Position numbers and translations under genes: made by a program | Origin: Candidatus Gottesmanbacteria bacterium | GTDB taxonomy: Bacteria > Patescibacteriota > Microgenomatia > UBA10105 > UBA927 | Assembly: GCA_023245335.1 (NCBI GenBank) | Contig: JAHFKK010000001.1 | Location: 1,000,019-1,064,018, forward strand | Direction: 5' to 3' | Length of the DNA: 64,000 nucleotides | In this document: positions 1 through 37,760 of the stretch, one piece after another | Layout: each line of letters begins with the position of its first letter | Numbering within the stretch: position 1 is the first letter of the stretch | Notes under the pieces: model-generated | Databases searched by the model: none | The model's input: the letters and a program-made list of their open reading frames with translations, nothing else | Told to the model about the DNA's origin: nothing

Positions 1-707
1 AAGTTCGCCATTCTCACGCCTATTGTTGGTCCGAACCCAAACAGTCCGCTTCTTACCGTGCGCTGAGGATGATCGACATCTAACGTCACTTCTATTCTCG
101 GTTCTATCGTCCTTCTAAAACAGCGTACCTCTAATGTGTCGGCCGGATTCCAAAATGCCACGCGCAACTGAGGTAATCCCCTATTTTTCCCCGATACCGC
201 GTGTTCAAGATGCGCGGTTAATTGAAGATTGCCTAACGCGCGAGGGACGACCACACTATGTGCATCGCTGGTAGATTTGTCTTTATCAGCCGGCAATTCG
301 GCGGGGTAATAACGGTCATGTTCACCTTCCTTCTGTATCACCAGATGCAACATATGGCGCCGTACTATATACCTGTCAATACATAAATGCAAGCCTTACA
401 GAACTGATTTGCGCGGACTGTACAACATGGTTTATACTTTCCGCCTATCCATATATAGCGTTTATGATATGCACAAAAATATAGAGCAACGAAATGCTTT
501 AGAACGGCAGGCCGAACAGTTATTGCGAGGATGCAGAAGAATCGGCTGCGTGCATGCAGTCCTTCAGACCGGCGGTTGCGCTGCCGGAAATACTCATAGG
601 GACATTATCGTCGCGTTATCTGGACGGGAAGGATGTCGGGACGCTCAGATCTCGGAGGGCGGAACTACCGTGCGGGTCATATTTGACGGCGTCAAAGTGA
701 CCTATAC

Positions 708-2051
708 TCAATAACGTTCGGGAACCGGAAATTTTGCGGTCAGTTCGGTCACTTCTTTCGCGATCCGCTGAATAGTTTTGTCGGCGGGTAACTCTTTTTT
801 CATTCTGATAATGAATGCTGCCCGCTCTTCTTTGTTCTCCGGCAAACGAATATCTTTTACAGACGAAATAATCTCCGTTATCCACCCGCCTATGAGCTTC
901 ATCTCTTTCTCTTTCATTCCTCTCGTCGTGATCGCGGGAGTTCCCAACCGAATACCGGAAGGATAGACGGATGTCCCGTTGTCAAAGGGAACCGTATTGC
1001 GGTTGACGACGATATTCGCGTACTCCAAGGCCCAGGCGACAACCCACGCTGAGGCGCCGGATGACCGGAGATCGATTAATACCAGGTGTTTATCCGTGCC
1101 CCCTGACACCACATCCAACCCTGCCTTCATAAACAGCCCGGCGAGTATCTGTGCATTTTTTACGACTTGCTTCGCGTACGCGGAAAATGCCGGAGTTTTT
1201 GCTTCTCCGAGAGCGACTGCTATTCCTGCGATCGTATGTTCGTGCGGCCCGCCCTGAATGCTCGGAAATACCGACTGATCTATAGCGGATGACAGCTCTT
1301 TTTTCGAGAATATCATGGCGCCCCTCGGACCGCGAAGCGTTTTGTGCGTCGTCATCATGACGACATCTGCATAGGGAAACGGCGACGTATTCACGCCACC
1401 CGCAATAAGCCCAGCTTCGTGGGATACGTCAGCGAGGTAATACGCGCCGACACTGTGGGCAATACCGGCCATCCGTTTGTGATCGATTTCCCTTGGATAC
1501 GCAGTGCCACCGGATATAAGTAATTTCGGCTTTACTTCTTTGGCCTGTTTCTGAATCTCGTCATAATCAAATACCCGTGTTCCTTTGTCGACGTGATAAA
1601 ACGTGACATCCCAAATTTTGGCGACAAGCGTCACTTTTTTCCCGGGAAGTTGCCACCCATGGGACAAATGCCCGCCGTCAGGCAAATACATAGATAATAT
1701 TCTTTCTCCCGGTTCCAATAGGGCCGCGATGACGGCAAGATTTGCAGGACTCCCGGAAAGCGCCTGGACATTGACGCCCCATTGGTCAGGATCAAGCTGA
1801 AAAAGCTCAAGCGCACGCTTTTTACAAAGGCTTTCCAGCTCATCCACGACACTATTTCCCTGATAATATCGCTTTTTCGCCTGCCCTTCGGCGTATTTGT
1901 TGATAAATACCGACCCTACTGCCTCCCGGACGGCCTGACTGGTATAGTTTTCCGAAGGAATCATCTCCAAAACTTCCTGCTGGCGCTTGGATTCAGCTGT
2001 GATAAGTACTGCTACTTGCCGGTCGGATGTATTTATTGCCATGTATGACAA
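708..2051 (-). CDS. glyA: Serine hydroxymethyltransferase
   Basis: 447 aa. N-terminal MIPSENYTS, a PLP-lysine region (HKTLRGPRG) and overall length are typical of SHMT. Confidence 0.9.
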   Translation of the reverse strand: MSYMAINTSDRQVAVLITAESKRQQEVLEMIPSENYTSQAVREAVGSVFINKYAEGQAKKRYYQGNSVVDELESLCKKRALELFQLDPDQWGVNVQALSGSPANLAVIAALLEPGERILSMYLPDGGHLSHGWQLPGKKVTLVAKIWDVTFYHVDKGTRVFDYDEIQKQAKEVKPKLLISGGTAYPREIDHKRMAGIAHSVGAYYLADVSHEAGLIAGGVNTSPFPYADVVMMTTHKTLRGPRGAMIFSKKELSSAIDQSVFPSIQGGPHEHTIAGIAVALGEAKTPAFSAYAKQVVKNAQILAGLFMKAGLDVVSGGTDKHLVLIDLRSSGASAWVVAWALEYANIVVNRNTVPFDNGTSVYPSGIRLGTPAITTRGMKEKEMKLIGGWITEIISSVKDIRLPENKEERAAFIIRMKKELPADKTIQRIAKEVTELTAKFPVPERY

Positions 2052-2087
2052 TTATATATGAAAGACAGTATGGATTGTATATACGCC

Positions 2088-2897
2088 TTAAGAGGAGACT
2101 TGAGTCTTTTGTACCAACCGGACGACAGCGGGTTCTATGGCACCGCAGATAAACGGCCGTAGGACACGGTCCGGTACCAACGCCCAACTGTCAAACCGGA
2201 ATAATTCCGACTCATTACCTTCTATCGAATCCTGAACCGATACGACGAGCGGCCGGTCGGTATCATAAAAATGCCTGCCGCCGTTTGCCAAGGATATCCC
2301 GCCTGCGTCATTTTCTACCGACTTCCTGCCGCTTCCTTTGGCATAAGCTACGACCTCATCACGGGTATACGGACGCATGTGTGCGTGTACCCGGAGAATG
2401 ACCGTCTTCGGTTCGGAGACACCGTCTTTACCGCATCGGACCGCGGTAAGTGCGTTCACGATCTCCACATCCTTGTCTGACTGGGCCATGGCCTCCGCCG
2501 ACTGACTGGCCCATGTGTCCGGATCCTGGTGGGGCTTCTCGAGTATCGTGAGGCTGCCGTCATCCTCATGAACAAACTGTACCGAATCCGTATAGAGATA
2601 AATCCGGTCTTTGCCGTCCGGAATGACACGCGCGCCTGCCGTATACGCCTCTGCCGTTCCGCAGATCGCACTCACCCAAGCGGCATCTTCGCGGGCTTTC
2701 TCCTCAGCGATAAAGACCGGGCGGATCTCCGTATGCGGTGCCATCCGCTGGATGCGCGTCTCATCAAACCCCGGTTCTTTCCGATCTATATGCCAACCAG
2801 GCAAGGCCGCCTGAAATATGGCGTCTTTGTTGCTGCCGTTGCGGGTGACGATCGTGATATCCGGTCGTTCGATATTCATAGGGTGTAAAAAACGCAA
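2088..2897 (-). CDS. Hypothetical protein
   Basis: 269-aa ORF with no overlapping competitor. No motif recognised. Confidence 0.45.
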   Translation of the reverse strand: MRFLHPMNIERPDITIVTRNGSNKDAIFQAALPGWHIDRKEPGFDETRIQRMAPHTEIRPVFIAEEKAREDAAWVSAICGTAEAYTAGARVIPDGKDRIYLYTDSVQFVHEDDGSLTILEKPHQDPDTWASQSAEAMAQSDKDVEIVNALTAVRCGKDGVSEPKTVILRVHAHMRPYTRDEVVAYAKGSGRKSVENDAGGISLANGGRHFYDTDRPLVVSVQDSIEGNESELFRFDSWALVPDRVLRPFICGAIEPAVVRLVQKTQVSS

Positions 2898-2922
2898 AAA
2901 GGCCCGCGAAGGGCCTCTTGAG
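2889..2922 (-). terminator. Rho-independent terminator (minus strand)
   Basis: Hairpin ggcccgcgaagggcc followed on the minus strand by a T-run (cctttttgcgtttttt). Confidence 0.45.
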
Positions 2923-3057
2923 AACGAATAGAACGAACTGACTGGTATATCCGGTTTTTCATTTGGTGAACCCCTTCTTCCCGATCTTTCGGGACTAGCT
3001 TATCCGCCAGCTGGCGGATGGGCTTCGTTTCTTGAGAAAAAACCTATGTAAAAAAAT

Positions 3058-3090
3058 AAAACGCCCAAAGCTTTGAGCGCTTTTATTGTT
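3058..3090 (-). terminator. Rho-independent terminator downstream of the histidine phosphatase gene
   Basis: Hairpin gcgctcaaagc/gctttgggcg followed by ttttattttttt on the minus strand, about 30 nt after the CDS stop. Confidence 0.5.
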
Positions 3091-3118
3091 TATATCAATT
3101 TCACCCGCAAAAGTCAAA

Positions 3119-3709
3119 TTAGCCACTCTTCGTAATTGAGCTCACCTCACAGCTATTTTTCGTGTCGTCAAAGACGAACTTGTAGCCTCCGGCGAGCGGG
3201 ATCGCGACCGTGCGGCTGGTCGGAAAATCTATGGGCAGTCCCAGATATTTCATAGTCACAAACCGCATCGGATCGCCGTGCGTGACGACCAAGACTTCCT
3301 TTCCCAAGTACTCACGCCGCTTTTCCTCTATAAATCCCGCCATCCGCTCTGCCAATTCCCCCATGGATTCAGCTCCTCTGGAGAGATATTTGGGGGTGTA
3401 GGAAAGCTCTCCGTTGGTCGCGTCAAAAAGGTTCATAGACGCTCCCTCCGCGTGGGTCAGCACCTCGAGCAGACGGTCATCGAATTGTACCGGCAGATGG
3501 AGGGCCGAGCTCAAAATTTCCGCAGTCTCGCGCGTCCGCAAAAGCGGACTGCTGTAAATAGCTCCCACATGCTTATCCCGGAAGTACGGCGCGAGTAATT
3601 CTACCTGTTCCCGCCCGCGGGAAGACAGCGGGTAACCCGGAGACCTCCCCGGATACATATATCCCGGATTGTCGTACTCTCCGTGGCGGACAAGATAGAG
3701 CGTGGTCAT
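3119..3709 (-). CDS. Histidine phosphatase family protein (phosphoglycerate mutase-like)
   Basis: N-terminal LYLVRHGE with RHG catalytic histidine motif, 196 aa. Confidence 0.8.
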   Translation of the reverse strand: MTTLYLVRHGEYDNPGYMYPGRSPGYPLSSRGREQVELLAPYFRDKHVGAIYSSPLLRTRETAEILSSALHLPVQFDDRLLEVLTHAEGASMNLFDATNGELSYTPKYLSRGAESMGELAERMAGFIEEKRREYLGKEVLVVTHGDPMRFVTMKYLGLPIDFPTSRTVAIPLAGGYKFVFDDTKNSCEVSSITKSG

Positions 3710-4819
3710 TTAGATAATGATCTTTTTTTTACGAAGAACAGCAAGAATTTTTTCGTGAATGTCTTCTTTGGAAAGAATTTTTCCTTCCTCCGCACACTCT
3801 ATGAGCGCCCAGTTTTTACGCGTTTTGGCCAAAGATAGATACATTGCTTCAGATGCCTTTCTATGGGTGAGATCGCTTTCCAATATGTCGCTTCTGGCAC
3901 CCAAATATGCGCGGTCGCCTTTCTTTTTCGTGAGCTCCATCCCGATTTGCCACGGCACGTGGAGGTAGATAACGACATCTTCCCGGGGAATTTTGTGTAC
4001 TTTGTACTCCAGCTCGTCTATCCAATCCAAAAATTCAGTGCGTTTATCCTCCGGGAGGCGCGCGCCCTGGTGTGCCATATTACTCGTCGCATAGCGGTTA
4101 CTTATGATGACTCCCCCGTGCGCAAGCCACATATCCATCTCCTCTTTGGCGGACGCACGATCCAATGCATACGCGAGCGAAGCCAGGTACGGCGAGACGT
4201 TGTCCCCGAATTCACCGGCGAGGAACCGTCCGGCTATCTTGCCGTGAAACGAACTATAATATCGCGGGAAATCAAATCCCTTCACCGGAATTTGGTGATC
4301 TTTGAGATAGTGTGTCAGGAGTTCCGCCTGCGTCGTCTTGCCGGATCCGTCGCCGCCGTCTATGACAATAAGCATTCCCCGGCGCTTCCTCTCGACATCT
4401 ACCTGCTCCAAAAAGTGTTTGAGGATAATGGGCAGACCTTCTTCATCATAATGTTCCAAAAATAAATGATCAGAAGGATTACCGGTGATCATGGCGGAAA
4501 GTTCATTGACCGCATCTTTGTAAAACATCGCCAATACGGGTTTATGATGCGTGAGCGCGTACACGATTTCTCCGCCGACGCCGCTACTGGGCTTGGTCAC
4601 TTCGGCAACGACACAATCGGCTTCGTCTATAGCGGTTTTCTCGCGCTGGAAGATCTCTTCGGCAGACCGCGCGGCATCTTTTTCGAGTTCGTGGTGATCC
4701 AGAATCTGTTCACCGGAGGTCAATGTATGCCCCAGTGTCTTGAGGTTGTCGATAATTGCTTTTTCCTGTACGAGATAATCGCCGTTATTTGTCGTCGCCG
4801 CCGTAAAATATATTTTCAT
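3710..4819 (-). CDS. tmk: Fusion protein: N-terminal nucleoside 2-deoxyribosyltransferase/Rcl-like domain plus C-terminal thymidylate (dTMP) kinase
   Basis: The C-terminal half has the Tmk P-loop IVIDGGDGSGKTTQ and lid region. The N-terminal ~140 aa (MKIYFTAA...GGEIVYAL) resembles the NDT/DNPH1 flavodoxin-like fold. Confidence 0.75.
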   Translation of the reverse strand: MKIYFTAATTNNGDYLVQEKAIIDNLKTLGHTLTSGEQILDHHELEKDAARSAEEIFQREKTAIDEADCVVAEVTKPSSGVGGEIVYALTHHKPVLAMFYKDAVNELSAMITGNPSDHLFLEHYDEEGLPIILKHFLEQVDVERKRRGMLIVIDGGDGSGKTTQAELLTHYLKDHQIPVKGFDFPRYYSSFHGKIAGRFLAGEFGDNVSPYLASLAYALDRASAKEEMDMWLAHGGVIISNRYATSNMAHQGARLPEDKRTEFLDWIDELEYKVHKIPREDVVIYLHVPWQIGMELTKKKGDRAYLGARSDILESDLTHRKASEAMYLSLAKTRKNWALIECAEEGKILSKEDIHEKILAVLRKKKIII

Positions 4820-5487
4820 GTTCTCTTCATGTATCCTAGCATATCCGCGACTTCGTAGACGGTAGGCAATGTGACATCCGCGACTTTTCCCGTCGTTTCG
4901 CTCCAGACAAGGCAGGTACGCATACCGAGTATATGTGCCGGCACGAGATCTACCGGTTCCCTATCTCCGATCATCATATGAGCGCCCGCAGGAAGCCCGG
5001 TTTCCTTCATGATATATCGGAATCCCTTCTCGCTTGGTTTGGTCTCTCCGACGACCTCTGATGTCACGATCTTCTCAAAAGTCGAGGGGTCGAGCCCGAT
5101 AATCTTCAGCCCTTTCGCGACCGACTCCTGCGTTCCGTTGACCAGCATGAAATGCCGGTATCGGGAAAGAGCCCGAAACATACCGGCAAGTCTGGCATCG
5201 GGCTTCAAGTACTTCGCATAGTCAACAGCTGCTGCCGTCTCTATCGCTGAGGCTGTATTAGAAATTTTGGCGATGATGGATACGGTCTTGGTACCGCTCG
5301 GAGTGATCACTTTATAAACTTTATAAAATTCTTCACTCGCTTTCTTCTCGGACCAGCCGGTATGCTTCATGATTACCCGTATCTCACCCGCCCGGATTTC
5401 ATCCCATAACGCGAGTTTTTGGCGGTAGAGTGTCCCGTCAAAATCCCAAACGATGATCTGAACGTCCTGAAACAGTGTATGCGGCAT
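4816..5487 (-). CDS. HAD-superfamily hydrolase
   Basis: N-terminal motif I DFDGTL, 223 aa. Overlaps tmk by 4 bp, suggesting an operon. Confidence 0.7.
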   Translation of the reverse strand: MPHTLFQDVQIIVWDFDGTLYRQKLALWDEIRAGEIRVIMKHTGWSEKKASEEFYKVYKVITPSGTKTVSIIAKISNTASAIETAAAVDYAKYLKPDARLAGMFRALSRYRHFMLVNGTQESVAKGLKIIGLDPSTFEKIVTSEVVGETKPSEKGFRYIMKETGLPAGAHMMIGDREPVDLVPAHILGMRTCLVWSETTGKVADVTLPTVYEVADMLGYMKRT

Positions 5488-5496
5488 AAATAGACG

Positions 5497-6132
5497 CTAC
5501 GATAAAGTGCGGAGTTTCATGCGAACCTCATGGACGAGTGTCACGCGTGCTTTGGCACTTTTTATAATATTAAGCTCATCCGTGACCACCTTCAATACGG
5601 GAATATCATTATCTTCGGCAAGCCATTTGTGATTGAGCATATCCAGAAGCTCCAAATATTTCATCGTGATGTGACGTTCATATCCTCGGCCGCGGGCGTC
5701 GATACGATGTGCAAGCTCGCGAATCGACGTCTCGAGGTAAATGATGAGATCCGGTTTGGGGAAATACGGTTCAAATGAACGATAAATTTTCTGGTACAAC
5801 CGCCACTCACTTTCGTCCATATTGCCTAGGACGTGCTGTGCCTTGGCATAGGAAAACGCATCCTCCTGGATCGGTGTATCCAGTACGACCGGCCGCACGA
5901 CAAGCATATTGCGCGTTTCCAAGATCTGCGAAATTTTTTCCATGAGAAAGAACGTCTGCGAATGAAATGCCCATCGTTTCATGTCCGTATAAAATCTCGG
6001 GAGAAACGCATTTTCCCCGAAATTTTCCTCGATGAGCCCGAATCGGAACTCTTTGGCGAGCAATCTCGAGACCGTGGTCTTCCCGCTTCCCATGGTTCCC
6101 ATGACGGTAAGATAGAATAATTTCTTCTTCAC
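5497..6132 (-). CDS. Deoxynucleoside kinase (dNK/dCK/dGK family)
   Basis: P-loop GTMGSGKTT, the ERS-like motif (here ETSIRE) and ~210 aa length are typical of deoxynucleoside kinases. Confidence 0.75.
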   Translation of the reverse strand: MKKKLFYLTVMGTMGSGKTTVSRLLAKEFRFGLIEENFGENAFLPRFYTDMKRWAFHSQTFFLMEKISQILETRNMLVVRPVVLDTPIQEDAFSYAKAQHVLGNMDESEWRLYQKIYRSFEPYFPKPDLIIYLETSIRELAHRIDARGRGYERHITMKYLELLDMLNHKWLAEDNDIPVLKVVTDELNIIKSAKARVTLVHEVRMKLRTLS

Positions 6133-6158
6133 TCAAACGTTGTATCATATAGAGAGAT

Positions 6159-7883
6159 ATGAGAGCAAGAAAGACGAGGAGCGCGTGGATCGAAATTATT
6201 TTAGGCAGTATTCTCCTTATCGCTACATTTTTACGTTTGTGGCAATTGGGATCTGTCCAACCCGGTTTGGCAAATGACGAGGCAGGCATTATCTATAGTG
6301 CATACTCCATCTGGAAAACAGGGCGCGAGCCGGCAGGCAAATTTTTACCCACTTCTATACAACTCGACAATTCATTTTCCCCCGTATACATCTATATAAC
6401 CGCGCCATTCGTAGGTCTCCTCGGCTTATCCCCGTGGGCAGGAAGGCTTCCATTCGCATTAACTGGAATCATGAGCGTGCTTCTTCTCTATTTCATTGTC
6501 AAAAAACTTAGCGACAACGATATCGTGGCATTAGGTGCTGCTGGCATCTTGGCACTTATCCCTTGGCATATATACGTTTCCCGCGCGGCGTTCGACGCTA
6601 ATTTTGCACTCGTCTTCTTTTTGGCAGGAATATATGCATTTCTTACATCTCAAAACAAACGGGTTAGGTCAATCCTCTGGTCACTCCTTTGGTTTTTTCT
6701 CGCGTTTTATAGTTATCACGCAACCAAACTATATTTCGTATTACTGCTTCCGACTCTCATCCTCATCTATTGGAAGTCACGAACTACCATACAGCGTATA
6801 GTCTTTATCCTCGGTACAATTCTCATCCTCTGCTCGTATGTGATTGTCCTCAAGACAAATGGACCGAATACACGAGCCGATGTTTTGATTTGGCAAAACA
6901 TGGACCAGTATAGTACCGAAGTTAATTGGCAACGCGAAAAATCTACCCTACCCGAAGGCCTTCGACCCGTATTCTCTAATAAAGTAACCGTAGCGGTACG
7001 CAAAGCAACCGAAACCTATCTAGAGGCGTTCTCAACAAACTATCTCTTTCTTTATGGAGAAACTGGTGCACTAACGAGTGTCTATGGCGGCATCATTAAC
7101 CAAGGACAATTATTTATTTTCATGCTACCATTTCTTATCTTTGGTGTCGTCGGTCTTTCAAAAACTTCAACGCGCACCAAACTACTTGTTACACTGCTTT
7201 TTTTATTCGCTCCAGTACCATCAGCCGCAGCATCGGACCGCACGCTTATTTTTCGAAGCTTCATGCTTTTAATCCCGCTTCCTATACTCGCGGGCTACGG
7301 CATTAACGAATGTATTATGTGGCTCAATACACAACGAAGCATCACAAAATGGATTGTTGTAGCGGGATACAGCATCTTTATTATAATCACACTTTGTTCA
7401 TATATTGCACATCTGTGGTACCGATATCCCGTCTATGGCGCAGAACGATGGTTTAAAAGCAGCACAGATCTCAGTATCTATGTACGAGATCATCATACAG
7501 ACTACTCTCGCGTAATCATTGTTCAATCCGGTTCCATGTTCCTATTTCAATTCGGTATATACGCTAAAATAGATCCAATCATAATACAGCGGGCTTGGAA
7601 CGCCAGACCACGAAGTGTCATAGACAATATCGTCTTTGCTGAATCTCCGTCATGCCCACGGATAACCCTCCCCACACGAGAAACCGCGTCATTGACAAAC
7701 CTGCTCCTCGTATGGCCGGATAATTGCGCAAATAGTTTGCTATCCACGCTGCCCCAAGTTTATACAATCAGGGAACGTGGCGAGCCTCTACGCTCCATAT
7801 GGCGAATGTATTCGCTACCAGCTAACACAACCTTCCAAACGAATTATCCGATGGATTTTTTCAGTCTTCCGACGAACCAATGA
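6159..7883 (+). CDS. GT39/GT83 (PMT/ArnT-like) polytopic membrane glycosyltransferase
   Basis: 574 aa with about 11 TM segments. The N-terminal loop carries the DE motif (NDEAGIIYSAYS) typical of ArnT/PMT GT-C enzymes. Confidence 0.7.
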   Translation: MRARKTRSAWIEIILGSILLIATFLRLWQLGSVQPGLANDEAGIIYSAYSIWKTGREPAGKFLPTSIQLDNSFSPVYIYITAPFVGLLGLSPWAGRLPFALTGIMSVLLLYFIVKKLSDNDIVALGAAGILALIPWHIYVSRAAFDANFALVFFLAGIYAFLTSQNKRVRSILWSLLWFFLAFYSYHATKLYFVLLLPTLILIYWKSRTTIQRIVFILGTILILCSYVIVLKTNGPNTRADVLIWQNMDQYSTEVNWQREKSTLPEGLRPVFSNKVTVAVRKATETYLEAFSTNYLFLYGETGALTSVYGGIINQGQLFIFMLPFLIFGVVGLSKTSTRTKLLVTLLFLFAPVPSAAASDRTLIFRSFMLLIPLPILAGYGINECIMWLNTQRSITKWIVVAGYSIFIIITLCSYIAHLWYRYPVYGAERWFKSSTDLSIYVRDHHTDYSRVIIVQSGSMFLFQFGIYAKIDPIIIQRAWNARPRSVIDNIVFAESPSCPRITLPTRETASLTNLLLVWPDNCANSLLSTLPQVYTIRERGEPLRSIWRMYSLPANTTFQTNYPMDFFSLPTNQ

Positions 7884-7997
7884 CACTGGAATCAAAAATA
7901 GTCAGTTGCGTGACATGACGATTTGACACCACATGACCTAATGTATAGCATACGAGTTGCAAGGAGCACATTTACAGGGAGCGGAAACTGGAAATTT

Positions 7998-8165
7998 TTT
8001 AGCGTGTGGCCCCGGTCACGACACAATCGGACCGTGGGATACGAGGAAGGCGTAAGCGAAACTATCTGCGGGTACGCCTCGGTTGCACTCTCAACCGCAA
8101 TCCGGATGAAAAACCCAACCGTAAGGCTGGATATAGATCAACCGGTTATGAGTCCGCCTCTCTAG
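7998..8165 (+). ncRNA. glmS ribozyme (glucosamine-6-phosphate-activated self-cleaving riboswitch)
   Basis: Found 150 nt upstream of the glmS ATG. It aligns to the conserved core AGCG...ACGAGGA-GGCG-UAAGCGAAA-CUGCGGGUACGCCU-CGGUUG...CAACCG...CCGUAAGG (Rfam RF00234: GACGAGGA..UAUCGAAU..GGCGGAUGCCUCC..CGGCUG..CAGCCGUAAGG). Confidence 0.55.
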
Positions 8166-8314
8166 ATCATTCTTACAAATTTACAAACAAAGGGCAGCAC
8201 ATAGCTTGTTCTGTCTTTAACTACGTTTATTAGGTGTGTCACGTATCATGTATCAATGTGTCACGCTCACATTCCTGACACTTGAGACCTGACGCCCATG
8301 ACACTATATATCTT

Positions 8315-10117
8315 ATGTGTGGAATATTCGGATACATCGGTCACAAAACAAACGCTCCGACGATCGTCCTTGAAGGACTCAAACGTCTCGAGTATCGCGG
8401 CTACGACTCCTGGGGAGTTGCCGTGGTGCCGGAGGGAGACGCCGAAAACATTCTCGTCAAGAAAAAGGCAGGAAAAATCGGCGCCGCGACCGTAACGAGC
8501 ATGCCGAAAGGGACACTTGCGTTCGGACATACCCGGTGGGCTACCCACGGCGGAGTGACGGACGTGAACGCCCATCCGCATCTCGACTGCACCAAAACCA
8601 TTGCAGTCATCCATAACGGGATCGTCGAAAATTACGAAGCACTCAAGGAAATGCTCACGAAAGAAGGGCACCACTTCGTATCCCAAACAGATACGGAAAT
8701 CATCGCGCATTTAGTGGAAGAAAATCTTAAGGCCATGAAGCCCGCCATTCGGGACGCCCAACCTGCTTTTTCCAAAGCGGTACAAAAAGCGTTTAATGCT
8801 CTCGACGGGCTTAACGCGATTATCCTTATAAACACCACGTCACACGAGATGGTGGCCGCAAGAAACGGCTCACCGCTTGTCGTTGGATTCGGTGACGGAG
8901 AAAATTTTCTCGCAAGCGATCCTGCGGCACTTCTCCCACATACCAAGCAAGTGCATTATCTGGAAGATGATGAGATGGTCATCGTGAGACCGGATGCCAT
9001 CCATATCTTTAACGCGAGGACCGGCGAACGGGTGCGGCCGCGGAAACAACTTCTCACGTGGACCGAAAAAGACGCGGAGAAAGGACAGTATCCCTACTTC
9101 ATGCTCAAAGAAATTTACGAGCAGCCCGGTCTTATGAGCGAAATTGCATCAGAATCGACGGAACAAGCTAAAGAATTGGCAAAGCAATTCGCTACTGCCT
9201 ACCGCGTATACGTCGTCGGAGCCGGCACATCCGGTCATGCCGCGCGGGCCGCATCGTATTTGTTTTCGGATATCTCCGCACATCTTATTAACTGGGGTAT
9301 CGCAAGCGAATTTGATCATCGGCTAAACGTGATACCGGAAAAAAGCCTAGTGGTAGCACTATCGCAATCGGGAGAAACGATGGATCTTATGGAAGTAGTG
9401 AAAAAAGCAAAGGCGAAAGGGATTGGTGTCGTTTCTATCGTCAACGTGGTGGGTTCTTCCCTATGGCGTATGGCCGATTTCCGTATGCCTATCGGAGCCG
9501 GACCGGAAAAAGGAGTGGCATCGACCAAGGCATTTACGTCAAAAATAGCGCACCTTATCCTTATCGCGTATGCAATGAAAGGAAACATCAGTGATGGACA
9601 AAAACTGCTCATACGGGCCGCCAAAAGCGCCAAAGAAGCGGTAAGCGAATCAAACGTCAAGCGTATCAAAGCGCTTGCGGCGAAGATGAAATCGGTCGAA
9701 CATATGTTCGTCGTGGGTAAGGGTATCTCCTATCCGGCAGCGCAGGAATGCGCGCTCAAGATAAAGGAAATATCCTATATCCATGCGGAAGGCGTCGCGG
9801 CAGGCGAACTCAAGCACGGCCCCCTAGCGCTCGTCACCAAAGGGACGCCATGCATCGTCATCGCGCCCAATGATGAGACCTATCGTGACGTCCTGGGAAG
9901 CGCGATGGAAATGAAAGCGAGAGGCGGTCATATCATCGGGTTTTCATATAAAAATGATGAGGTCTTTGATGATTACATACCGGTCGCCGATGCGGGTGAG
10001 GCGACGATTATCCCGAACGTCATCGTGGCCCAGCTCCTCGCCTACTATCTGACGCTTGAACGGGGCTTTGACCCCGACATGCCGCGAAATCTCGCCAAAA
10101 GCGTAACCGTGAAATAA
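8315..10117 (+). CDS. glmS: Glutamine--fructose-6-phosphate aminotransferase
   Basis: MCGIFGYIG N-terminal nucleophile Cys, two SIS domains, C-terminal ...KSVTVK. The upstream Met at 8282 would put the catalytic Cys at residue 12, so 8315 is preferred. Confidence 0.93.
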   Translation: MCGIFGYIGHKTNAPTIVLEGLKRLEYRGYDSWGVAVVPEGDAENILVKKKAGKIGAATVTSMPKGTLAFGHTRWATHGGVTDVNAHPHLDCTKTIAVIHNGIVENYEALKEMLTKEGHHFVSQTDTEIIAHLVEENLKAMKPAIRDAQPAFSKAVQKAFNALDGLNAIILINTTSHEMVAARNGSPLVVGFGDGENFLASDPAALLPHTKQVHYLEDDEMVIVRPDAIHIFNARTGERVRPRKQLLTWTEKDAEKGQYPYFMLKEIYEQPGLMSEIASESTEQAKELAKQFATAYRVYVVGAGTSGHAARAASYLFSDISAHLINWGIASEFDHRLNVIPEKSLVVALSQSGETMDLMEVVKKAKAKGIGVVSIVNVVGSSLWRMADFRMPIGAGPEKGVASTKAFTSKIAHLILIAYAMKGNISDGQKLLIRAAKSAKEAVSESNVKRIKALAAKMKSVEHMFVVGKGISYPAAQECALKIKEISYIHAEGVAAGELKHGPLALVTKGTPCIVIAPNDETYRDVLGSAMEMKARGGHIIGFSYKNDEVFDDYIPVADAGEATIIPNVIVAQLLAYYLTLERGFDPDMPRNLAKSVTVK

Positions 10118-10392: not shown

Positions 10393-11622
10393 ATGAATAA
10401 GCGTATTGCCATGATTTCCGTGCACGAGTGCCCGCTCGCATCCAGTGAAGGCAAAGAGCGCGGAGGCATAAATGTCTATGTGTACGAACTATCCAAAGCC
10501 CTAACGAGGCTCGGGTGGCAAATCGACATGTACACCCGCATGCAGGACTCTGTGAATCCCGCGGTCGTCCAGGTGAACGATAATGCGCGCGTCATCCACA
10601 TCCCTGCCGGCCCAAAGACGCCGATTCCCAAACAACAGGTCATCGGACATCTCGATGAATTTTCACGCAATATGGCCGAGTTCATCCGTGACGACGGAGC
10701 AACCTATAATTATATTCATGCACACTATTATTACTCGGGAGTAGTCGGCCGATATATAGCCGATAATTCGCAGTATTCGATACCTCTTGTCATGACATTT
10801 CACACCTTAGGACTACTCAAACAGCTAACGACTACGAATCATGCCGATGATCCAAAGGAGCGCATCCTCATAGAAAAAGAATTAGTTGCGGCAGCCACAA
10901 AAATTATCGCGACGAGTGACAATGACGCCACATACCTTAAAGCACTGTATGACGCTCCATCCGCGCGGATAGCGATCATCCCTCCGGGCGTCGACACGAG
11001 ACTTTTCCACAATGCCCCCAAAGAAGAGGCGAAACAAGCTATAGGCGCAGACCCCACGCATCGGATCATCCTTTCCGTCGGTAGGATTGATCCGGTAAAA
11101 GGATTAGATGTGTTGTTATATGGGCTCAAACTCATGATTAACGCACACCCCGAATACGCACAAAATACCTGTTTATGGATTGTCGGCGGCGATGTAGAAG
11201 AAAAACGCCGTGAATGGAATTCCGAACAAGCCAAGCTGGAATCCATACGCGAGACGCTCGGACTCCGGACGACGGTCAAATTCATCCCGGCGCAATCGCA
11301 GGAAAAACTCCCTGATTATTATAATGCCGCAGACGTCTTAGTCATGGCCTCGCACTACGAGTCTTTTGGGATGGTCGCTTTGGAGGCCTTAGCCTGCGGG
11401 ACACCGGTTATCGCCACAGACGTTACCGGTATCTCCCCGCTTGTGAAGGCGTTCCCGAAAGGACATATCATATCCGCCAACAATCCGATTCTCCTTTCAC
11501 AAAAACTCGCGCACGTCTTATCGCACCCGCCATTGGTGCAGGCAGATACCCAAAAAATTATTTCGTCTTTGGATTGGTCAGAAACCGCCAAAAAAGTGAT
11601 CTACGTCTACGAAGCATTGTGA
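10393..11622 (+). CDS. GT4 family glycosyltransferase (MshA/sucrose-phosphate-synthase-like)
   Basis: N-terminal GGINVYV(YE)L and a C-terminal E-x7-E region (ESFGMVALEALACGTPVIA). Confidence 0.8.
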   Translation: MNKRIAMISVHECPLASSEGKERGGINVYVYELSKALTRLGWQIDMYTRMQDSVNPAVVQVNDNARVIHIPAGPKTPIPKQQVIGHLDEFSRNMAEFIRDDGATYNYIHAHYYYSGVVGRYIADNSQYSIPLVMTFHTLGLLKQLTTTNHADDPKERILIEKELVAAATKIIATSDNDATYLKALYDAPSARIAIIPPGVDTRLFHNAPKEEAKQAIGADPTHRIILSVGRIDPVKGLDVLLYGLKLMINAHPEYAQNTCLWIVGGDVEEKRREWNSEQAKLESIRETLGLRTTVKFIPAQSQEKLPDYYNAADVLVMASHYESFGMVALEALACGTPVIATDVTGISPLVKAFPKGHIISANNPILLSQKLAHVLSHPPLVQADTQKIISSLDWSETAKKVIYVYEAL

Positions 11623-14791: not shown

Positions 14792-15397
14792 TTATTTTTC
14801 CTGGGCAATTCTGCTTGCCAGAGGTGTTTTTTGCCCGGCGTATTTCGCCGTTTTTTTCTTACTGTACGGCACCTGGGCAGGAGAACTTAATTCTTCAAAC
14901 GTCATACTGCAAATCCGCATCCCCGGATAGAGGGCGACCGCCATACGGCCTAAATTTCCAAGCTCCATGACGACGACGCCATTCCACCCGGGCTCGAATA
15001 TTGACGCGGTCGAATGGACAACGATTCCGAGCCGTCCGAGACTGGATCTTCCTTCTAAGCGACCAATAAGATCATCTGCGATAGATATGGATTCAACGGT
15101 TGTTGCTAACACGAAATCACCCGGTTGCAGGATAAACGCTTCCCCTTTTGTGAGATTGACTTCCCGCATCATGTCTTTGGAAAGCTTAGGATTCGTCGGG
15201 TCTATATAGGCCATCGTGCTATGGTTGAAAACCCGGAATTGTCTTCCGAGCCGGAGATCGACCGAACAAGAACCAAGCTGTGTCTTCGCATCTATCTTCG
15301 GGGTTATGACAATTCTCTTGGAGAGAACGGCTTTTTTGATATCCCTATCGGACAAAATCATGGGCCTAAGTATAGCCAATACGCGTGCATGAGACAA
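14792..15397 (-). CDS. dcd: dCTP deaminase
   Basis: MILSDRDIKKA N-terminus, ~200 aa trimeric dUTPase-like fold, and the VDLRLG motif. Confidence 0.88.
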   Translation of the reverse strand: MSHARVLAILRPMILSDRDIKKAVLSKRIVITPKIDAKTQLGSCSVDLRLGRQFRVFNHSTMAYIDPTNPKLSKDMMREVNLTKGEAFILQPGDFVLATTVESISIADDLIGRLEGRSSLGRLGIVVHSTASIFEPGWNGVVVMELGNLGRMAVALYPGMRICSMTFEELSSPAQVPYSKKKTAKYAGQKTPLASRIAQEK

Positions 15398-15438
15398 GTC
15401 AGAGGAATAAATGTTTATATTGCGATATACTGTTCCTT

Positions 15439-16296
15439 ATGATCCGGGGCATCATCACAGACATAGACGGCGTCATCGTCGGAGACAAAGTCGGATTCAA
15501 TTCTCCCTTCCCCCATCCTGACGTCCTCGCACGGATAAAGAAAATACATGACTCCGGCATACCGGTGACCCTTTGTACCGGCAAGCCGCATTATGCGGTC
15601 GGGCAAATCATCCGCGTCTGCGGACTCAATAATCCCCATATCACCGACGGCGGAGCCATCATCATAGATCCTATCACCAACACGATTGTCAAAAAACATG
15701 TTATGGATCCCTCGCTCGTTGCCGGACTCGTCGCGTCGTGTCTTAGGACTGACATGTATGTCGAGATCTATACGGAGGAGAGCTATATCATCCAAAAAAG
15801 CCAAGTCCGGGAAAATCTGACCCCGATACATGAGCACATATTGCAAACCGCGCCGGTCATAGTAGACGACTTGGTCGAGGAAGCCAAAAACCATGAGATC
15901 GTGAAAGTTATGCCGGTCGCAACGGATGAGGAAGACAAAAAACGACTGATTTCGATCTACGAGCCGTATAAGGATCAACTGACTCTCGCCTTTGGACTCC
16001 ACCCCATCGCAAACCCGCACCAGTTCGGTCTGATTACCGCCAAAGGCGTCTCAAAGAAACAATCCGCAATCGATGCGACCTCGGCTCTCCAAATTCCACT
16101 ACGTGATTATCTCGGAATTGGAGACAGCACCAGCGACTGGTCATTCATGGAGCTGTGCGGCTATGCGGCTACGATAGGAAACGGCAGCAGTGAACTCAAA
16201 AAACTGGTCGTAAGCAAAGAAGATCACGGATTTATCGCCGAACACTCCGTCGACGAAAACGGGGCGCTCACTATCCTTGATTACTTCGGACTGTGA
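15439..16296 (+). CDS. Cof-type HAD-IIB phosphatase
   Basis: MIRGIITDIDGV motif I. The later GIGDSTSDWSFMELCGYAATIGNG matches Cof-type motif III. The start was moved from 15385 to 15439 so that it begins at motif I and does not overlap dcd. Confidence 0.7.
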   Translation: MIRGIITDIDGVIVGDKVGFNSPFPHPDVLARIKKIHDSGIPVTLCTGKPHYAVGQIIRVCGLNNPHITDGGAIIIDPITNTIVKKHVMDPSLVAGLVASCLRTDMYVEIYTEESYIIQKSQVRENLTPIHEHILQTAPVIVDDLVEEAKNHEIVKVMPVATDEEDKKRLISIYEPYKDQLTLAFGLHPIANPHQFGLITAKGVSKKQSAIDATSALQIPLRDYLGIGDSTSDWSFMELCGYAATIGNGSSELKKLVVSKEDHGFIAEHSVDENGALTILDYFGL

Positions 16297-16677: not shown

Positions 16678-17034
16678 TTATTTCTTCTTCTTACTCCGCA
16701 TAACGGCAGCATACGCCCCCATGACCCACGGGACTATGGCAGCGGGGTCATCCATGGCGCATGATGGGACTTCCCAAAACGATAATGTTGTAGGTTTCCC
16801 CGTATGACTCCTATAGACAAAACGTTTACTTCCCTCGTCTTCATAATCCTTCTGATTCTCTCTATCTACTTTGAGATACAGCGTCCCTCCGTTTATGAGC
16901 CCGATAAATATGCCGCGCAAATAGATCCCATGGCCGTCAAACATCCGCCGGATGGCGATGCCGTCTACCTCACGCAGAAGTTCGCTTTCGACGTACACTT
17001 TGAAGCTGTCATCCCTCGTCTTCATCCAGGTCAT
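16678..17034 (-). CDS. TfoX/Sxy N-terminal domain protein (competence regulator-like)
   Basis: Characteristic pattern R(R)MFGGxGIY..G..FG...DGxLYLK (here AIRRMFDGHGIYLRGIFIGLINGGTLYLKVD). Confidence 0.6.
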   Translation of the reverse strand: MTWMKTRDDSFKVYVESELLREVDGIAIRRMFDGHGIYLRGIFIGLINGGTLYLKVDRENQKDYEDEGSKRFVYRSHTGKPTTLSFWEVPSCAMDDPAAIVPWVMGAYAAVMRSKKKK

Positions 17035-24584: not shown

Positions 24585-25133
24585 ATGCGTTCCTCTATGC
24601 CAAACCGGGAATATCAACCCAAAGAAGCAGCACCCTGGAAGGAACACACGACCGCATCAGCATCTGCGTCCGTATTTTTGTCTGATGATCAGGGTAGGCT
24701 CCTCATGGTCCAGGATATAGACGCCTACGGCGGAAAATGGTCGCCTATCGCGGGCTTTGTCGACGTCGCAAACAACGAGGAACCGGAAGTGGCGGCCCTT
24801 CGCGAAGCCAAAGAAGAATTGGGGCTCGATATCCGGCTCGATGAACTCTTAGGCGTATGGCACTATTATGCGGAAGACGGTCCCAAAAAATCCGATGAAA
24901 AAACTCATATGCACGTGGGCTACTCCTACACCGGCACCATCTTAGGCGGTACGTATACGATGCAAAAGGAAGAAATCCAAAATTACGGCTTCTTCACTCC
25001 CACTCAAATTGAAGACATGCACCGAAACGGGATACTCAAAACACCGCAGTACAACTATGTGGGATACAAACTCTGGCAAGCCGGCACCCGGCATCCTCTC
25101 AACGTCATCCAAACGAACGGGACGACACACTAA
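24585..25133 (+). CDS. NUDIX hydrolase
   Basis: Nudix box G..x..E...REAKEELGL (here EVAALREAKEELGLDI). Confidence 0.7.
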   Translation: MRSSMPNREYQPKEAAPWKEHTTASASASVFLSDDQGRLLMVQDIDAYGGKWSPIAGFVDVANNEEPEVAALREAKEELGLDIRLDELLGVWHYYAEDGPKKSDEKTHMHVGYSYTGTILGGTYTMQKEEIQNYGFFTPTQIEDMHRNGILKTPQYNYVGYKLWQAGTRHPLNVIQTNGTTH

Positions 25134-25134: not shown

Positions 25135-25998
25135 TCACCGGATCGTATATCGGCTGTCTACATAGGAAGCAATACGGCCTTCCAGATCCGACAATCCGGC
25201 TAGATCTTTGATGTAATGACTCGTATCCAAAACGAGCGCCCCGGACGGGCGGTCCAGAAGTCCGTTCTCTTTGTCCATGCCGTCCCGCTCACGGATATAC
25301 CGCTGTTCACTGATGACGTCCTTGTGTGCCGTCGGGTCGTGTGCCACGCGGTACGTCGCCGATGCGTCTGGGCTCGCGAATAAATACAGTTTCACCTTCG
25401 CATCAGGGAAAAGATCCAGACCCGTTTTCCTGCCGATCACAATCACTCCCCCCAATTGCCCCGCCGAATCCCGCCAAAACTGATAGAGTTTCCATCGCAT
25501 CGCAGGAGATGAGGCGATGACGGCAGACAAATTTTCGATGGCCTTCTGTTTGGGATAGGTGATGAGTTCACCCAGCATATCACGGTCACCGACCATGACA
25601 CGTGCCGTATGCGAACCCTCCTTGGGTTTGTCGATCCGTAGCTTTTCCGGTAACTGATCGTAAAAATCGACGATCCGGTCGGCAAAATCGACAGGGATAG
25701 TTGTGACGTTTGACCCGTCTGTTTTTACCATTTTGCTTTCTATGGCCAATAGCGCCAGCGCTCGGACGGTCGTACCGGTGTTAAATATAGTGAGGTTGTA
25801 GCGGTTCGCGAGCTTCTCGGAAATGACGCGCTTGCCCGCGGTCGTTGACCCGTCCATAGTAATAATCATGGAATGACGATCTATGATTTCTTTGGGTTGG
25901 GCTGGCTGGCGTTCGAGTAGGCTCACCATATAATAAATTGCTCCGGGCTGTCGTTCATCTCCGTGTTTAAAAAAACTTGGAGCATTCCGACAGAGCAA
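25135..25998 (-). CDS. cmk: Cytidylate kinase, with insertions
   Basis: P-loop-like ITMDGSTTAGKRV at the N-terminus and a KLYLFASPDASATYR segment resembling the Cmk C-terminal KIFLTAS..RA.RR. 287 aa is longer than canonical. Confidence 0.55.
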   Translation of the reverse strand: MLCRNAPSFFKHGDERQPGAIYYMVSLLERQPAQPKEIIDRHSMIITMDGSTTAGKRVISEKLANRYNLTIFNTGTTVRALALLAIESKMVKTDGSNVTTIPVDFADRIVDFYDQLPEKLRIDKPKEGSHTARVMVGDRDMLGELITYPKQKAIENLSAVIASSPAMRWKLYQFWRDSAGQLGGVIVIGRKTGLDLFPDAKVKLYLFASPDASATYRVAHDPTAHKDVISEQRYIRERDGMDKENGLLDRPSGALVLDTSHYIKDLAGLSDLEGRIASYVDSRYTIR

Positions 25999-36883: not shown

Positions 36884-37561
36884 GACCGACTTATTATGGC
36901 AGATTTATCACGGATTACAATGGGATTCCCACAAAAAATCCCTGGCGGAGCCAGGGAAATTTGTTTAATCCACCCGATCTTCCTTTGCGCCTTACCTACT
37001 ATTCGTAGCGCGGCGCAAAGAGCGATCTTTAGCGGACTTCGGTGCCTTTAGCAACCGGATGGTGATAGGGTTCACCCAGAGCAATGAAAAGAAACCACAC
37101 CGCATAGAGCGGAAGCAATTATCTTTTCGTGCATAGGGTTAGGGATTTGAGAGAAAACTAGAAAAGATCATCCCGCTAAATGCGGAATATCTCGATCATG
37201 AACTAGTTTTCAAATAGAAAGGAGGTGATCCATCCCCAGCTTCGGCTAGGGATACCTTGTTACGACTTAGTCCCCATCGCTGAACTTACCTTCGACTCGT
37301 AAACGAATCTTCGGGTACTTTCAACTTTGGTGGCTTGACGGGCGGTGTGTACAAGACCCGAGAACGTATTCACCGCGGCCTGCTGATCCGCGATTACTAC
37401 CAATTCCAACTTCATGAGGTCGGGTTGCAGACCTCAATCTGAATTGAGGCGAAATTTTAGAGATTTGCTTGGCATTACTACCTTGCGTCCCGTTGTTATT
37501 CGCCATTGTAGGGTGTGTGTGGCCCAGGGCATAAGCGCCGTGCTGACTTGACGTCGTCCCC

Positions 37562-37690: not shown

Positions 37691-37760
37691 GGGCGGTCTC
37701 CGATGACACTTGTAACATCGGATAGGGGTTGCGCTCGTTGTCCCACTTAAGGGAACACCC

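Follow-up and report, generated by a model that had tools for sequence, protein, structure and literature searches.

The PurR regulon of E. coli covers glyA and guaBA, and the purine riboswitches of Firmicutes provide a second form of purine control. The subject here is an RNA that resembles these systems in what it stands before (glyA, guaB, guaA and the gene for adenosine deaminase, all behind one sensor) and not in what it is. It lies within 64,000 nucleotides of DNA from a Candidatus Gottesmanbacteria bacterium (positions 1,000,019 to 1,064,018 of contig JAHFKK010000001.1, assembly GCA_023245335.1; this whole stretch is called the window), a member of the Microgenomatia within the Candidate Phyla Radiation (CPR, or Patescibacteria). 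There it separates two units of a cluster of genes concerned with deoxynucleotides: on one side a deoxynucleoside kinase (dNK), a HAD phosphatase, a fusion of a DNPH1/Rcl-like domain to a dTMP kinase (DNPH1::Tmk) and a histidine phosphatase (HisPhos), on the other an open reading frame (ORF) for a Maf-like protein and glyA, which encodes serine hydroxymethyltransferase (SHMT). It is argued below that this leader is a candidate new riboswitch, well supported as such, and that it serves a gene cluster whose parts are familiar and whose arrangement is not.

The gap of 240 nt between HisPhos and the Maf-like ORF, an ORF absent from an earlier note on this DNA that was made from the sequence alone, holds the conserved structured RNA. 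In its outer helix, P1, 5'-G-U6-C pairs with G-A5-6-C. Then come an internal loop with almost no variation (UCAAGNAAC in its 5' strand, ACCAAAY in its 3' strand) and a helix, P2, which differs among relatives in both bases and length and bears one or two hairpins. A short form of 63 nt also occurs, for instance at L017:11783-11844. The leader is strikingly conserved where the flanking proteins are only about 50% identical. It is represented by 46 loci and 35 distinct sequences. When loci were searched by pattern, all 20 with a Maf-like gene had the motif and no other locus did; 30 metagenome contigs also gave matches, two of which (L088 and L097) turned out to be false positives within coding sequence (17 bits). 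A covariance model places the motif in each of the 16 genome loci that have a Maf-like gene and in none of 66 others. The model separates true sites (55-73 bits) from everything else in about 1.5 Mb of sequence (20 bits at most), and it finds one copy in the window. Neither there nor in the 66 other loci is there an extra motif upstream of thyA, dcd, dNK or the gene for thymidine kinase (TK), the best matches having E values of 0.13-0.7; a weak match in L048 was rejected, as it lies inside a coding region.

Covariation supports the helices. Over the 35 sequences, 85.7% of the cells are paired and 9 of the 15 pairs have changed on both sides, the score being 0.246 as against 0.084 after shuffling (none of 500 as high) and no more than 0.109 in slid controls, figures to be read with the understanding that the search pattern itself had set three pairs of P1 and the first of P2, and that a cell stands for a sequence, not for an evolutionary event. 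Examples of compensating change in P2 are GAAUAACC/GGUUAUUC, GAAUGUCC/GGACAUUC and GUCCCGCC/GGCGGGAC; P1 occurs as AUUUUUC/GAAAAAU and in a version with four U and four A. RNAalifold finds P1 independently. Of 14 leaders folded singly by minimum free energy, 7 show P1, P2 and the terminator, while the fold of L006, L016 and L080 contains the anti-terminator. Three representatives gave no relevant match up to E 10 in Rfam 15, the THF, ZTP, glycine, purine and PreQ1 riboswitches included. The two helices and internal loop match no Rfam family and are unrelated to the three-way junction of the Firmicutes purine riboswitch.

What follows the motif differs from one genome to the next. In 12 variants the regulated gene starts at the AUG within ACCAAAUG-AAAAA. 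A Shine-Dalgarno-like AGGA 8 nt upstream of this AUG belongs to the 3' strand of P2, and both would be hidden once the RNA folds. In 8 variants, that of the window among them, the in-motif AUG opens an upstream ORF (uORF) of 17-62 codons that passes through a terminator hairpin; in five independent variants the uORF has 25-29 codons and its stop falls, as AUGA, on the start codon of the Maf-like gene. The position of the window's hairpin is kept in relatives, with compensatory changes in the stem. The remaining arrangements are found in the 15 of the 35 variants that have ACG in place of AUG. In nine of these an intrinsic terminator lies some 40 nt downstream, with a mimic, GUUUUUUC-UUUGGU-AGACCC, ahead of it; the mimic is complementary to the aptamer's 3' half throughout, which marks it as an anti-terminator. 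In the other six the gene starts 17-25 nt past the motif.

The genes behind the motif are mostly that for the Maf-like protein followed by glyA, and in other cases that for a 264-amino-acid (aa) protein of no named family followed by glyA, that for IMP dehydrogenase (guaB), or the series adenosine deaminase-guaB-guaA, the last encoding GMP synthase. One aptamer with several expression platforms and a coherent nucleotide regulon bears the hallmarks of a riboswitch, and the sensing of a metabolite is predicted on this ground. Judged by the sequences that folding would bury or free, the logic of the RNA appears to be OFF on folding. The likeness of the regulon to those that respond to purines points to a purine or a signal of the nucleotide pool, which by analogy is put forward as the ligand, a guess of low confidence. 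In some metagenome contigs the motif stands before Cmk-like P-loop proteins of 242-260 aa, in the slot of the Maf-like protein (L092:5057-6083, oriented; L094:375-1192; L108:187-999). One of the three matches the Pfam cytidylate kinase model weakly, at E 0.0025, and the others do not match it; in L108 the next gene is glyA.

Between HisPhos and the RNA there is a second terminator-like hairpin, kept in relatives, which is probably the end of the dNK-HAD-fusion-HisPhos transcription unit. A box, 'GGTGGTATAAAT', stands directly upstream of this hairpin (3058-3100, minus strand) and is kept across relatives. It might be a -10 element, but a transcript from it would open with a terminator.

The protein at the centre of the first unit joins the likenesses of two described enzymes, DNPH1/Rcl (PDB 4fyh, 4p5e and 9i3q) and the dTMP kinase of M. 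tuberculosis (PDB 1g3u; NF005923). Pfam finds Nuc_deoxyrib_tr at aa 14-99 (E 3e-8) and Thymidylate_kin at aa 153-347 (E 7.5e-18; PF02223, 65.3 bits with a cutoff of 27). The earlier note had called the protein an NDT/Rcl-like::Tmk fusion. The second of its names for the N-terminal part is borne out by comparison with solved structures and the first is not: the N-terminal 148 aa match DNPH1/Rcl chains only (12 sequences, E 5.4e-11 to 2e-9, over aa 4-143), and no nucleoside deoxyribosyltransferase (NDT or PDT) appears among the PDB matches even at E 10. With NDT/PDT of the Lactobacillus type (PF05014) the fusion shares a superfamily, and it passes their Pfam model (34.2 bits as against 28.8), but it differs from them in its structure matches and in the residues that would contact the substrate. 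These were examined in an alignment of 120 members of the fusion family with rat and human DNPH1. The Glu nucleophile of the GxGxE motif (E84; rat E93) is kept in 119 of the 120, and the position of DNPH1 Asp69, the acidic residue of the triad, is Glu in 95%. That of Tyr13 is Tyr in 79% and Phe in the other 21%. Both serines that bind the 5'-phosphate are kept as well, S78 (rat S87) in 95% and S108 (rat S117) in 96%, the rest having Thr, which indicates a nucleotide, not a nucleoside, as substrate. The fused domain therefore looks, from its residues, like an active nucleotide N-glycosidase with a specificity of its own. It differs from DNPH1 in being bacterial and in being joined covalently to a dTMP kinase.

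That kinase is closest to the M. tuberculosis enzyme (E 8e-19). In alignment with it the P-loop (GDGSGKT, including the Asp), FPRY, LDR, and the R-Y-x-x-S-N motif for thymine and phosphate, with its Asn100-type contacts to thymine, fall into place, although DRY reads NRY. The fusion has 920 homologues, the named ones belonging to Candidatus Gottesmanbacteria, Patescibacteria and Microgenomates. A literature search found no publication on a fusion of DNPH1 with Tmk.

If these genes stood together by chance, their order should not have survived in diverged genomes. ORFs were called in 86 loci and compared with the proteins of the window, 80 of the loci being the best species-level genome loci that carry the fusion (from Gottesmanbacteria, Roizmanbacteria, Woesebacteria and Microgenomates), and in all 80 the fusion is full length. 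In 16 of the 80 the order is (Cof)-Dcd-ThyA fusion...glmS/dNK-HAD-fusion-HisPhos-Maf-like-SHMT-rpsB, Dcd and the ThyA fusion being visible upstream in 12 of the 16, and the same full order is found on several metagenome contigs. The proteins of these 16 genomes, all Gottesmanbacteria, have diverged to 47-85% identity, and clustering kept over such a distance is not chance. The genes of the first unit are packed closely: 9 nt separate dNK from HAD, HAD shares 4 nt with the fusion gene, and HisPhos starts where the fusion stops (0 nt), spacing that is consistent with translational coupling. The whole cluster lies directly upstream of rpsB-tsf-frr, just beyond the start of the window. Many of the Third Party Annotation metagenome-assembled genomes that carry the cluster (L009, L012, L016, L018-L020 and others) are titled 'uncultured Gammaproteobacteria bacterium'. 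On loci of the Microgenomates type, this is probably an artefact of labelling.

The loci outside the 16 tell as much as those within. In a variant known from 6-7 sister loci, the order is dNK-fusion-TK(-PNP-GGDEF)-rpsB, with Dcd nearby and with neither ThyA nor SHMT; the fusions of these loci are 51-67% identical to that of the window, and one locus has both ThyA and TK. Of the cluster, more distant genomes retain only the fusion, which often adjoins rpsB and in some cases has Dcd or the ThyA fusion with it. What is constant, then, is the core DNPH1::Tmk, present at all 80 loci while its neighbours vary, and the variable module is an alternative route to dTMP, since TK, with or without PNP, replaces HisPhos-Maf-GlyA/ThyA in the same slot. 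Nothing argues more strongly than this exchange for a cluster concerned with the supply of thymidylate, and against one concerned with a modified base. The view of the earlier note, that the genes form a cluster for salvage of pyrimidine deoxynucleotides and for thymidylate, holds as regards their coherence, which follows from synteny, tight spacing and the TK exchange. It does not hold as regards pure salvage, because dcd, ThyA and glyA are part of the cluster. The coordinates of all these features, with the basis of each assignment, are collected in the table below; every gene that the earlier note named at 708-6132 is real, on the minus strand and where it was placed (ORF list, Pfam and NCBIfam), and its block at 13.2-16.3 kb is confirmed, with a protein having a thymidylate synthase (TS) domain and dcd on the minus strand and Cof on the plus strand.

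Table. Features of the nucleotide cluster, its leader RNA and the outlying nucleotide genes (positions within the window)
Feature	Position	Strand	Basis and remarks
glyA, serine hydroxymethyltransferase, 447 aa	708-2051	-	Pfam SHMT E 2.6e-152; NF000586 495 bits (cutoff 335)
Maf-like ORF, 263 aa from ATG 2879	2088-2879	-	Predicted fold; 269 aa if from TTG 2897
28-codon uORF	2876-2962	-	From in-motif AUG through terminator; ends AUGA over Maf-like start
Terminator-like hairpin with U-tract	2897-2919	-	Immediately upstream of Maf-like ATG; expression platform
Riboswitch-like aptamer (candidate), 95 nt	2951-3045	-	Covariance model R1, 65.2 bits, E 1.3e-12
Terminator-like hairpin	3058-3083	-	36 nt past HisPhos stop
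HisPhos (His_Phos_1), branch 1 histidine phosphatase, 196 aa	3119-3709	-	Pfam E 8.9e-35; RHG motif
DNPH1/Rcl-like::dTMP kinase fusion, 369 aa	3710-4819	-	Pfam, NCBIfam, PDB sequence search
dTMP kinase domain of fusion, aa ~149-369	3710-~4375	-	
DNPH1/Rcl-like dNMP N-glycosidase domain of fusion (predicted), aa 1-~145	~4385-4819	-	
HAD-IA phosphatase, pyrimidine 5'-nucleotidase-like	4816-5487	-	DxDxT; Pfam Hydrolase/HAD_2 E 1e-12 to 1e-13
dNK, 211 aa from GTG	5497-6132	-	Pfam PF01712 E 1.3e-41, 143 bits (cutoff 27)
Three-domain thymidylate synthase (ThyA), 509 aa	13260-14789	-	Pfam, NCBIfam, PDB alignment
dcd, dCTP deaminase	14792-15361 (ORF to 15397)	-	TIGR02274 205 bits (cutoff 92.8)
Cof-type HAD-IIB phosphatase	15385-16296	+	Pfam Hydrolase_3 E 4.2e-28
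NUDIX	24585-25133		
Cmk	25135-25998		
RNase_H_2/exonuclease-like ORF	26138-26752		

The thymidylate synthase of the window was called archaeal-type in the earlier note, which is right for the TS core and overlooks that the protein as a whole is a fusion of three domains: MtrA-like (aa 2-128), short archaeal-type TS (aa 175-387) and PterinBD/DUF4346 (aa 433-502). Short archaeal ThyA (TIGR03283, the M. jannaschii type) aligns over its full length with the core (aa 175-377; model positions 3-199 of 201). It differs in having no such flanking domains, and the window protein scores below its equivalog cutoff (141.6 as against 174.55 bits). The motifs TPCLTQ, FRSQDM, PRNVFS and SAHIY align with the TS structures 3uwl and 1tsy (P-C, R-S-x-D, the Asn of the dUMP type, and H-x-Y). 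A protozoan analogy is the bifunctional DHFR-TS, in which TS is likewise joined to domains related to folate or pterin, but nothing indicates that the extra domains of the window protein reduce dihydrofolate. They probably bind a one-carbon carrier or handle a pterin cofactor. Among the 120 best relatives identity is never below 77% and every protein has the three domains; the family at large comprises at least 285 clusters in a library at 50% identity (E at most 1e-30), most of them of 450-530 aa and aligned end to end; named carriers are candidate division KSB1, Iainarchaeum (DPANN) and Parcubacteria. By these comparisons the three-domain protein is a widespread and highly conserved family of the housekeeping type in CPR, DPANN and KSB1. 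A literature search found no publication on an MtrA-TS fusion or on the DUF4346/PterinBD architecture. An AlphaFold2 model of the fusion, made from a shallow alignment (at least 77% identity), had a pLDDT of 53.7, below 50 in the TS core, and was unusable.

The stop codon of dcd is 2 nt upstream of the start of ThyA. The real start of dcd is probably M13, at 15361, where alignment to solved Dcd begins. The protein scores 155 bits with Dcd of E. coli and 149 bits with DCD:DUT of M. tuberculosis; it has HSTA as in the latter (HVTA in E. coli) and Glu for the Asp of IDPG, and neither feature separates the monofunctional enzyme from the bifunctional. Cof is divergent from dcd and adjoins it also in the relatives L009, L010 and L020.

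The Maf proteins (YhdE, YceF, B. subtilis Maf; PF02545) are the closest described relatives of the protein encoded just behind the leader. An AlphaFold2 model built from the family alignment (pLDDT 88.5) was compared with the PDB by Foldseek, and the top 12 matches are all Maf (probability 1.0, E 1e-8 to 1e-7, target-normalised TM 0.56-0.68), including the Maf-like protein of T. brucei (2amh), YceF, YhdE and B. subtilis Maf, with HAM1/ITPase next. Invariant in the family are K-A, (Y)-x-D-x-x-Q and E-K-P, which follow one another as in Maf (Lys-Ala, Asp, Glu-Lys-Pro). The protein differs from Maf in being about 70 aa longer, in its place beside glyA under riboswitch-like control, and in its distribution: its homologues form only 25 clusters, all of one lineage and all at least 47% identical. 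The model suggests a diverged protein of Maf fold, a putative (d)NTP pyrophosphatase.

Of the remaining enzymes of the first unit, dNK matches dNK, dGK and dCK chains in the PDB, among them the dNK 8puu (E 9e-21), the Mycoplasma dNK 2jaq/2jas (E 1.6e-16) and human dCK (E 2e-11). By sequence it is most similar to the broad-specificity dNKs of the Mycoplasma dAK/dGK type, which suggests a division of labour in which dNK would serve dA, dG and dC, and TK or ThyA would provide for dT. Salvage in the Mollicute style (dNK of Mycoplasma mycoides) is thus matched by the kinase and, in sister genomes, by the addition of TK. The window's own lineage differs in that dTMP comes from dcd and ThyA. The HAD phosphatase has Pyr-5-nucleotidase and YjjG as its best NCBIfam models, both below cutoff, and weak PDB matches to YfnB and XMP phosphatase. 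HisPhos has as its best structure the phosphoserine phosphatase of H. thermophilus (4ij5, E 1.2e-16), followed by PhoE (E 1e-8), with all NCBIfam models below cutoff. A role as phosphoserine phosphatase (PspA) feeding GlyA was considered and dropped, the NCBIfam score being far below cutoff and the gene being found also without SHMT.

I propose that the cluster is a lineage-specific supraoperon for supplying dTTP and for sanitising the pool of dNMPs, combining salvage of deoxynucleosides with de novo synthesis of thymidylate from dCTP, a reading that I regard as probable, though well short of secure. In the first unit, dNK would convert scavenged deoxynucleosides to dNMPs, and Tmk would commit dTMP by converting it to dTDP. 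The DNPH1 domain and the two phosphatases would destroy or dephosphorylate dNMPs that are unwanted or in surplus, for which dUMP-like compounds, 5-substituted dUMPs and excess purine dNMPs are candidates. The DNPH1 domain may remove compounds other than dTMP that Tmk might activate, or it may send surplus dNMPs to deoxyribose-5-phosphate, while HAD and HisPhos would form the reverse arm of substrate cycles of kinase and nucleotidase, a further means of pool sanitation. The second unit, Maf-like-GlyA, would join Dcd and the ThyA fusion, at a distance of 10-12 kb, in making dTMP de novo: Dcd would take dCTP to dUTP or dUMP, the Maf-like enzyme may add a pyrophosphatase step or clean house, and GlyA would charge the one-carbon carrier with which ThyA makes dTMP (dUMP + CH2-THF -> dTMP), the product then passing to Tmk. 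In the leader, folding would bury AGGA and AUG in P1/P2, or permit the terminator to form, and so turn the second unit off. Unfolded, the 3' half would pair with the downstream mimic as an anti-terminator, or else the uORF would be translated across the terminator and its ribosomes passed on to the Maf-like start through AUGA.

A bolder proposal takes three of these elements together, and I offer it as a real possibility, though one somewhat less likely than not. The leader would be a new Microgenomatia class of riboswitch that senses a purine or other metabolite of the nucleotide pool and shuts off Maf-like-GlyA, and elsewhere the genes that lead from adenosine to GMP. DNPH1::Tmk would be a 'proofreading' kinase that hydrolyses wrong dNMPs, such as dUMP-like compounds or 5-substituted dUMPs derived from scavenged DNA, at the gateway to the dTTP pool. 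The ThyA fusion would be a self-contained thymidylate synthase, handling its own pterin cofactor in organisms that have no canonical folate cycle.

Other explanations should be weighed against these. The leader could be the site of an RNA-binding protein of the PyrR or TRAP kind, or an attenuator that works through a leader peptide and the ribosome. The motif is indeed small, two helices and an internal loop, it is confined to a narrow lineage without a known ligand, and in 8 variants a uORF crosses the terminator, its stop falling as AUGA on the start of the gene in 5 of them. Against this, the 15 variants with ACG in place of AUG have no uORF and keep the whole motif all the same, and in 12 more the AUG is the plain start codon of the regulated gene. 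What similarity there is among the uORF peptides is accounted for by the sequence of the terminator stem. A single aptamer that serves translational, terminator and uORF platforms before varied nucleotide genes is the classical signature of a riboswitch, and the alternative seems unlikely, if worth taking seriously. A plainer view would have it that these are ordinary housekeeping genes, adjacent by accident and not coupled in function. All the enzyme families are common, genomes of CPR bacteria are compact with long co-directional runs, and genes for the ribosome and translation adjoin the cluster. But this view, already disfavoured, must contend with an order kept in 16 species-level genomes despite the divergence of the proteins, with start and stop codons that overlap or abut, with TK/PNP, themselves dTMP-related genes, substituting at the same position, and with a dedicated cis-regulatory RNA, and it is very improbable.

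Two further alternatives concern the source and the fate of the nucleotides. The earlier note suggested that the organism scavenges deoxynucleosides or DNA in place of reducing ribonucleotides, as it took to be usual in CPR; in the strongest form of this idea, it lacks ribonucleotide reductase (RNR), pyr genes and dut, depends wholly on what it scavenges, and has in this cluster the core of an obligate salvage. A dNK of broad type heads the operon, sister lineages add TK and PNP, the competence genes DprA and TfoX_N lie in the window, and Patescibacteria are described as without biosynthesis of nucleic-acid precursors and as rich in genes for competence and nucleotide interconversion (PMC11665869; PMC7143001). 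No nrd, pyr or dut gene is present in the window; but these 64 kb cover only about 5% of a 1.218-Mb genome, and a literature search found no publication giving the RNR content of Gottesmanbacteria. A review of the CPR includes RNR and ThyA among the conserved genes used for classification and phylogeny (PMC10221324), which implies that RNR is common in CPR and argues against its absence being usual there. Moreover, dcd, ThyA and glyA make up a de novo route to dTMP that needs a steady supply of dCTP, and an organism that does not make bases de novo may still reduce ribonucleotides. Salvage as one component is real; complete reliance on it I consider doubtful. The earlier note also raised a pathway dedicated to a modified pyrimidine. 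Were this 5-hydroxymethyl-dU or -dC or another 5-substituted base, the TS-like enzyme would serve as a hydroxymethylase, the fused kinase would act on the modified dNMP, and DNPH1, Maf and the phosphatases would exclude the canonical nucleotide. The phage toolkit for hypermodification consists of a dCTP deaminase, a TS-like enzyme and a dNMP kinase. The TS domain of the window does have unusual extra domains and also matches the CMP 5-hydroxymethylase MilA (E 4e-9), and human DNPH1 is deposited in the PDB also as 5-hydroxymethyl-dUMP N-hydrolase. Yet the best matches of the TS domain are bona fide thymidylate synthases and TIGR03283, and the residues specific to dUMP, including the Asn, are kept. 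No second thymidylate synthase is adjacent, and TK replaces the module in sister genomes, which points to the module as an equivalent source of dTMP. Over more than 120 clusters the three-domain ThyA keeps at least 77% identity, and its range takes in KSB1, DPANN and Parcubacteria, the pattern of a housekeeping family and not of a mobile or defence system, and no phage genes and no glycosyl-, amino- or other transferases that might decorate a base are adjacent. A modified pyrimidine is extremely improbable.

The proposed dTTP-supply and pool-sanitising cluster, with its riboswitch, has difficulties of its own, and they should be set out in one place. The anti-terminator complementarity of the window's own leader is weak, and over positions 1-7000 promoter-like and terminator-like sites are no commoner than in shuffled sequence (a sigma-70 scan gave 8 promoters where 8.7 were expected, and none was placed for the second unit). 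A regulon with guaB, guaA and add points to purines, which is awkward for a Maf-like-GlyA unit devoted purely to thymidylate. Two Roizmanbacteria loci have HisPhos and the fusion without SHMT, so the tie of HisPhos to the supply of serine and one-carbon units is weak. In the DNPH1 domain the equivalent of Arg19 is not conserved, which, together with the Phe found at Tyr13 in a fifth of the family, means that substrate or activity may differ from those of DNPH1. The kinase departs from the M. tuberculosis enzyme not only in its partner but in having NRY for the DRY motif and His for Tyr103, and it falls below the NCBIfam cutoffs for dTMP kinase (NF005923, 131.3 as against 193; TIGR00041, 62.1 as against 83.25). 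The Maf-like protein scores 16.7 bits with Pfam, below the gathering cutoff of 27, and it lacks SxSPRR, the N-terminal phosphate-binding motif of Maf, having V-T-x(4-5)-K in its place (V11, T12 and K18 invariant). When its profile was compared by hhalign with an approximate sequence of B. subtilis Maf, the probability was 1.7%, so the assignment rests on the fold search and the order of motifs. Dcd could itself be bifunctional, in which case a separate dUTP pyrophosphatase would be unnecessary. Finally, the activities given to the enzymes are predictions from comparison of sequences and structures.

Beyond the cluster, the earlier note had attached to it a NUDIX gene, a Cmk gene and an exonuclease gene. 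They exist, but they stand outside the conserved unit, 18 kb away with MFS transporters, a P-type ATPase and hypothetical genes in between, and relatives do not keep them with the cluster. Its two halves are themselves separated by glmS (8282-10117) with its ribozyme/riboswitch upstream (7990-8155, plus strand, 53 bits with a gathering score of 37). The 16S rRNA gene (37218-39036, minus strand) is split by a group I intron (38327-38573; Rfam RF00028, 73.5 bits), and the 'ORFs' at 37321-38781 lie inside it. Both the intron and the glmS ribozyme fit a CPR genome. TfoX_N, a competence regulator domain (16678-17034, minus strand), comes right after the Cof/dcd/thyA block, and DprA is found at 55482-56579 (minus strand); as genes of DNA uptake the two are consistent with scavenging of DNA. 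Genes for glycosylation of the cell envelope are interleaved with the nucleotide genes: a PMT_2 glycosyltransferase (6159-7883, plus strand), a GT4 enzyme (10393-11622) and two large membrane proteins of the YfhO family (30670-33144, plus strand; 33779-36160, minus strand). At 40748-49873 five sulfatase paralogues of 517-527 aa stand in a row (four on the plus strand, one on the minus) that is broken by genes for a SpoU methylase and a hypothetical protein, an unusual array in a CPR genome of 1.2 Mb. Of the 32 2-kb bins of the window, 31 have a negative GC skew, whatever the orientation of the genes (cumulative -2.41), and a similar disparity in strand composition has been reported for other Microgenomates genomes (PMC7143001).

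The enzymes of this locus belong to known families, and their arrangement is specific to the lineage. What sets the locus apart is the DNPH1::Tmk fusion, the widespread three-domain ThyA, the lineage-specific protein of Maf fold and, above all, the candidate class of riboswitch. CPR bacteria are thought to live on scavenged building blocks, and the locus offers concrete parts by which they may keep up their dNTP pools: a kinase fused to a hydrolase of the DNPH1 type, conserved in at least 80 species, and, in the exchange of TK for ThyA/GlyA, two evolutionary solutions to the supply of dTMP. A literature search found nothing on riboswitches in CPR. If the proposal is true, the leader would be the first riboswitch class described from these bacteria, as far as the searches show. 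It could also serve as a tool for inducible expression, which is wanting in the CPR field (PMC11665869), and its ligand would report a nucleotide signal that CPR bacteria monitor.

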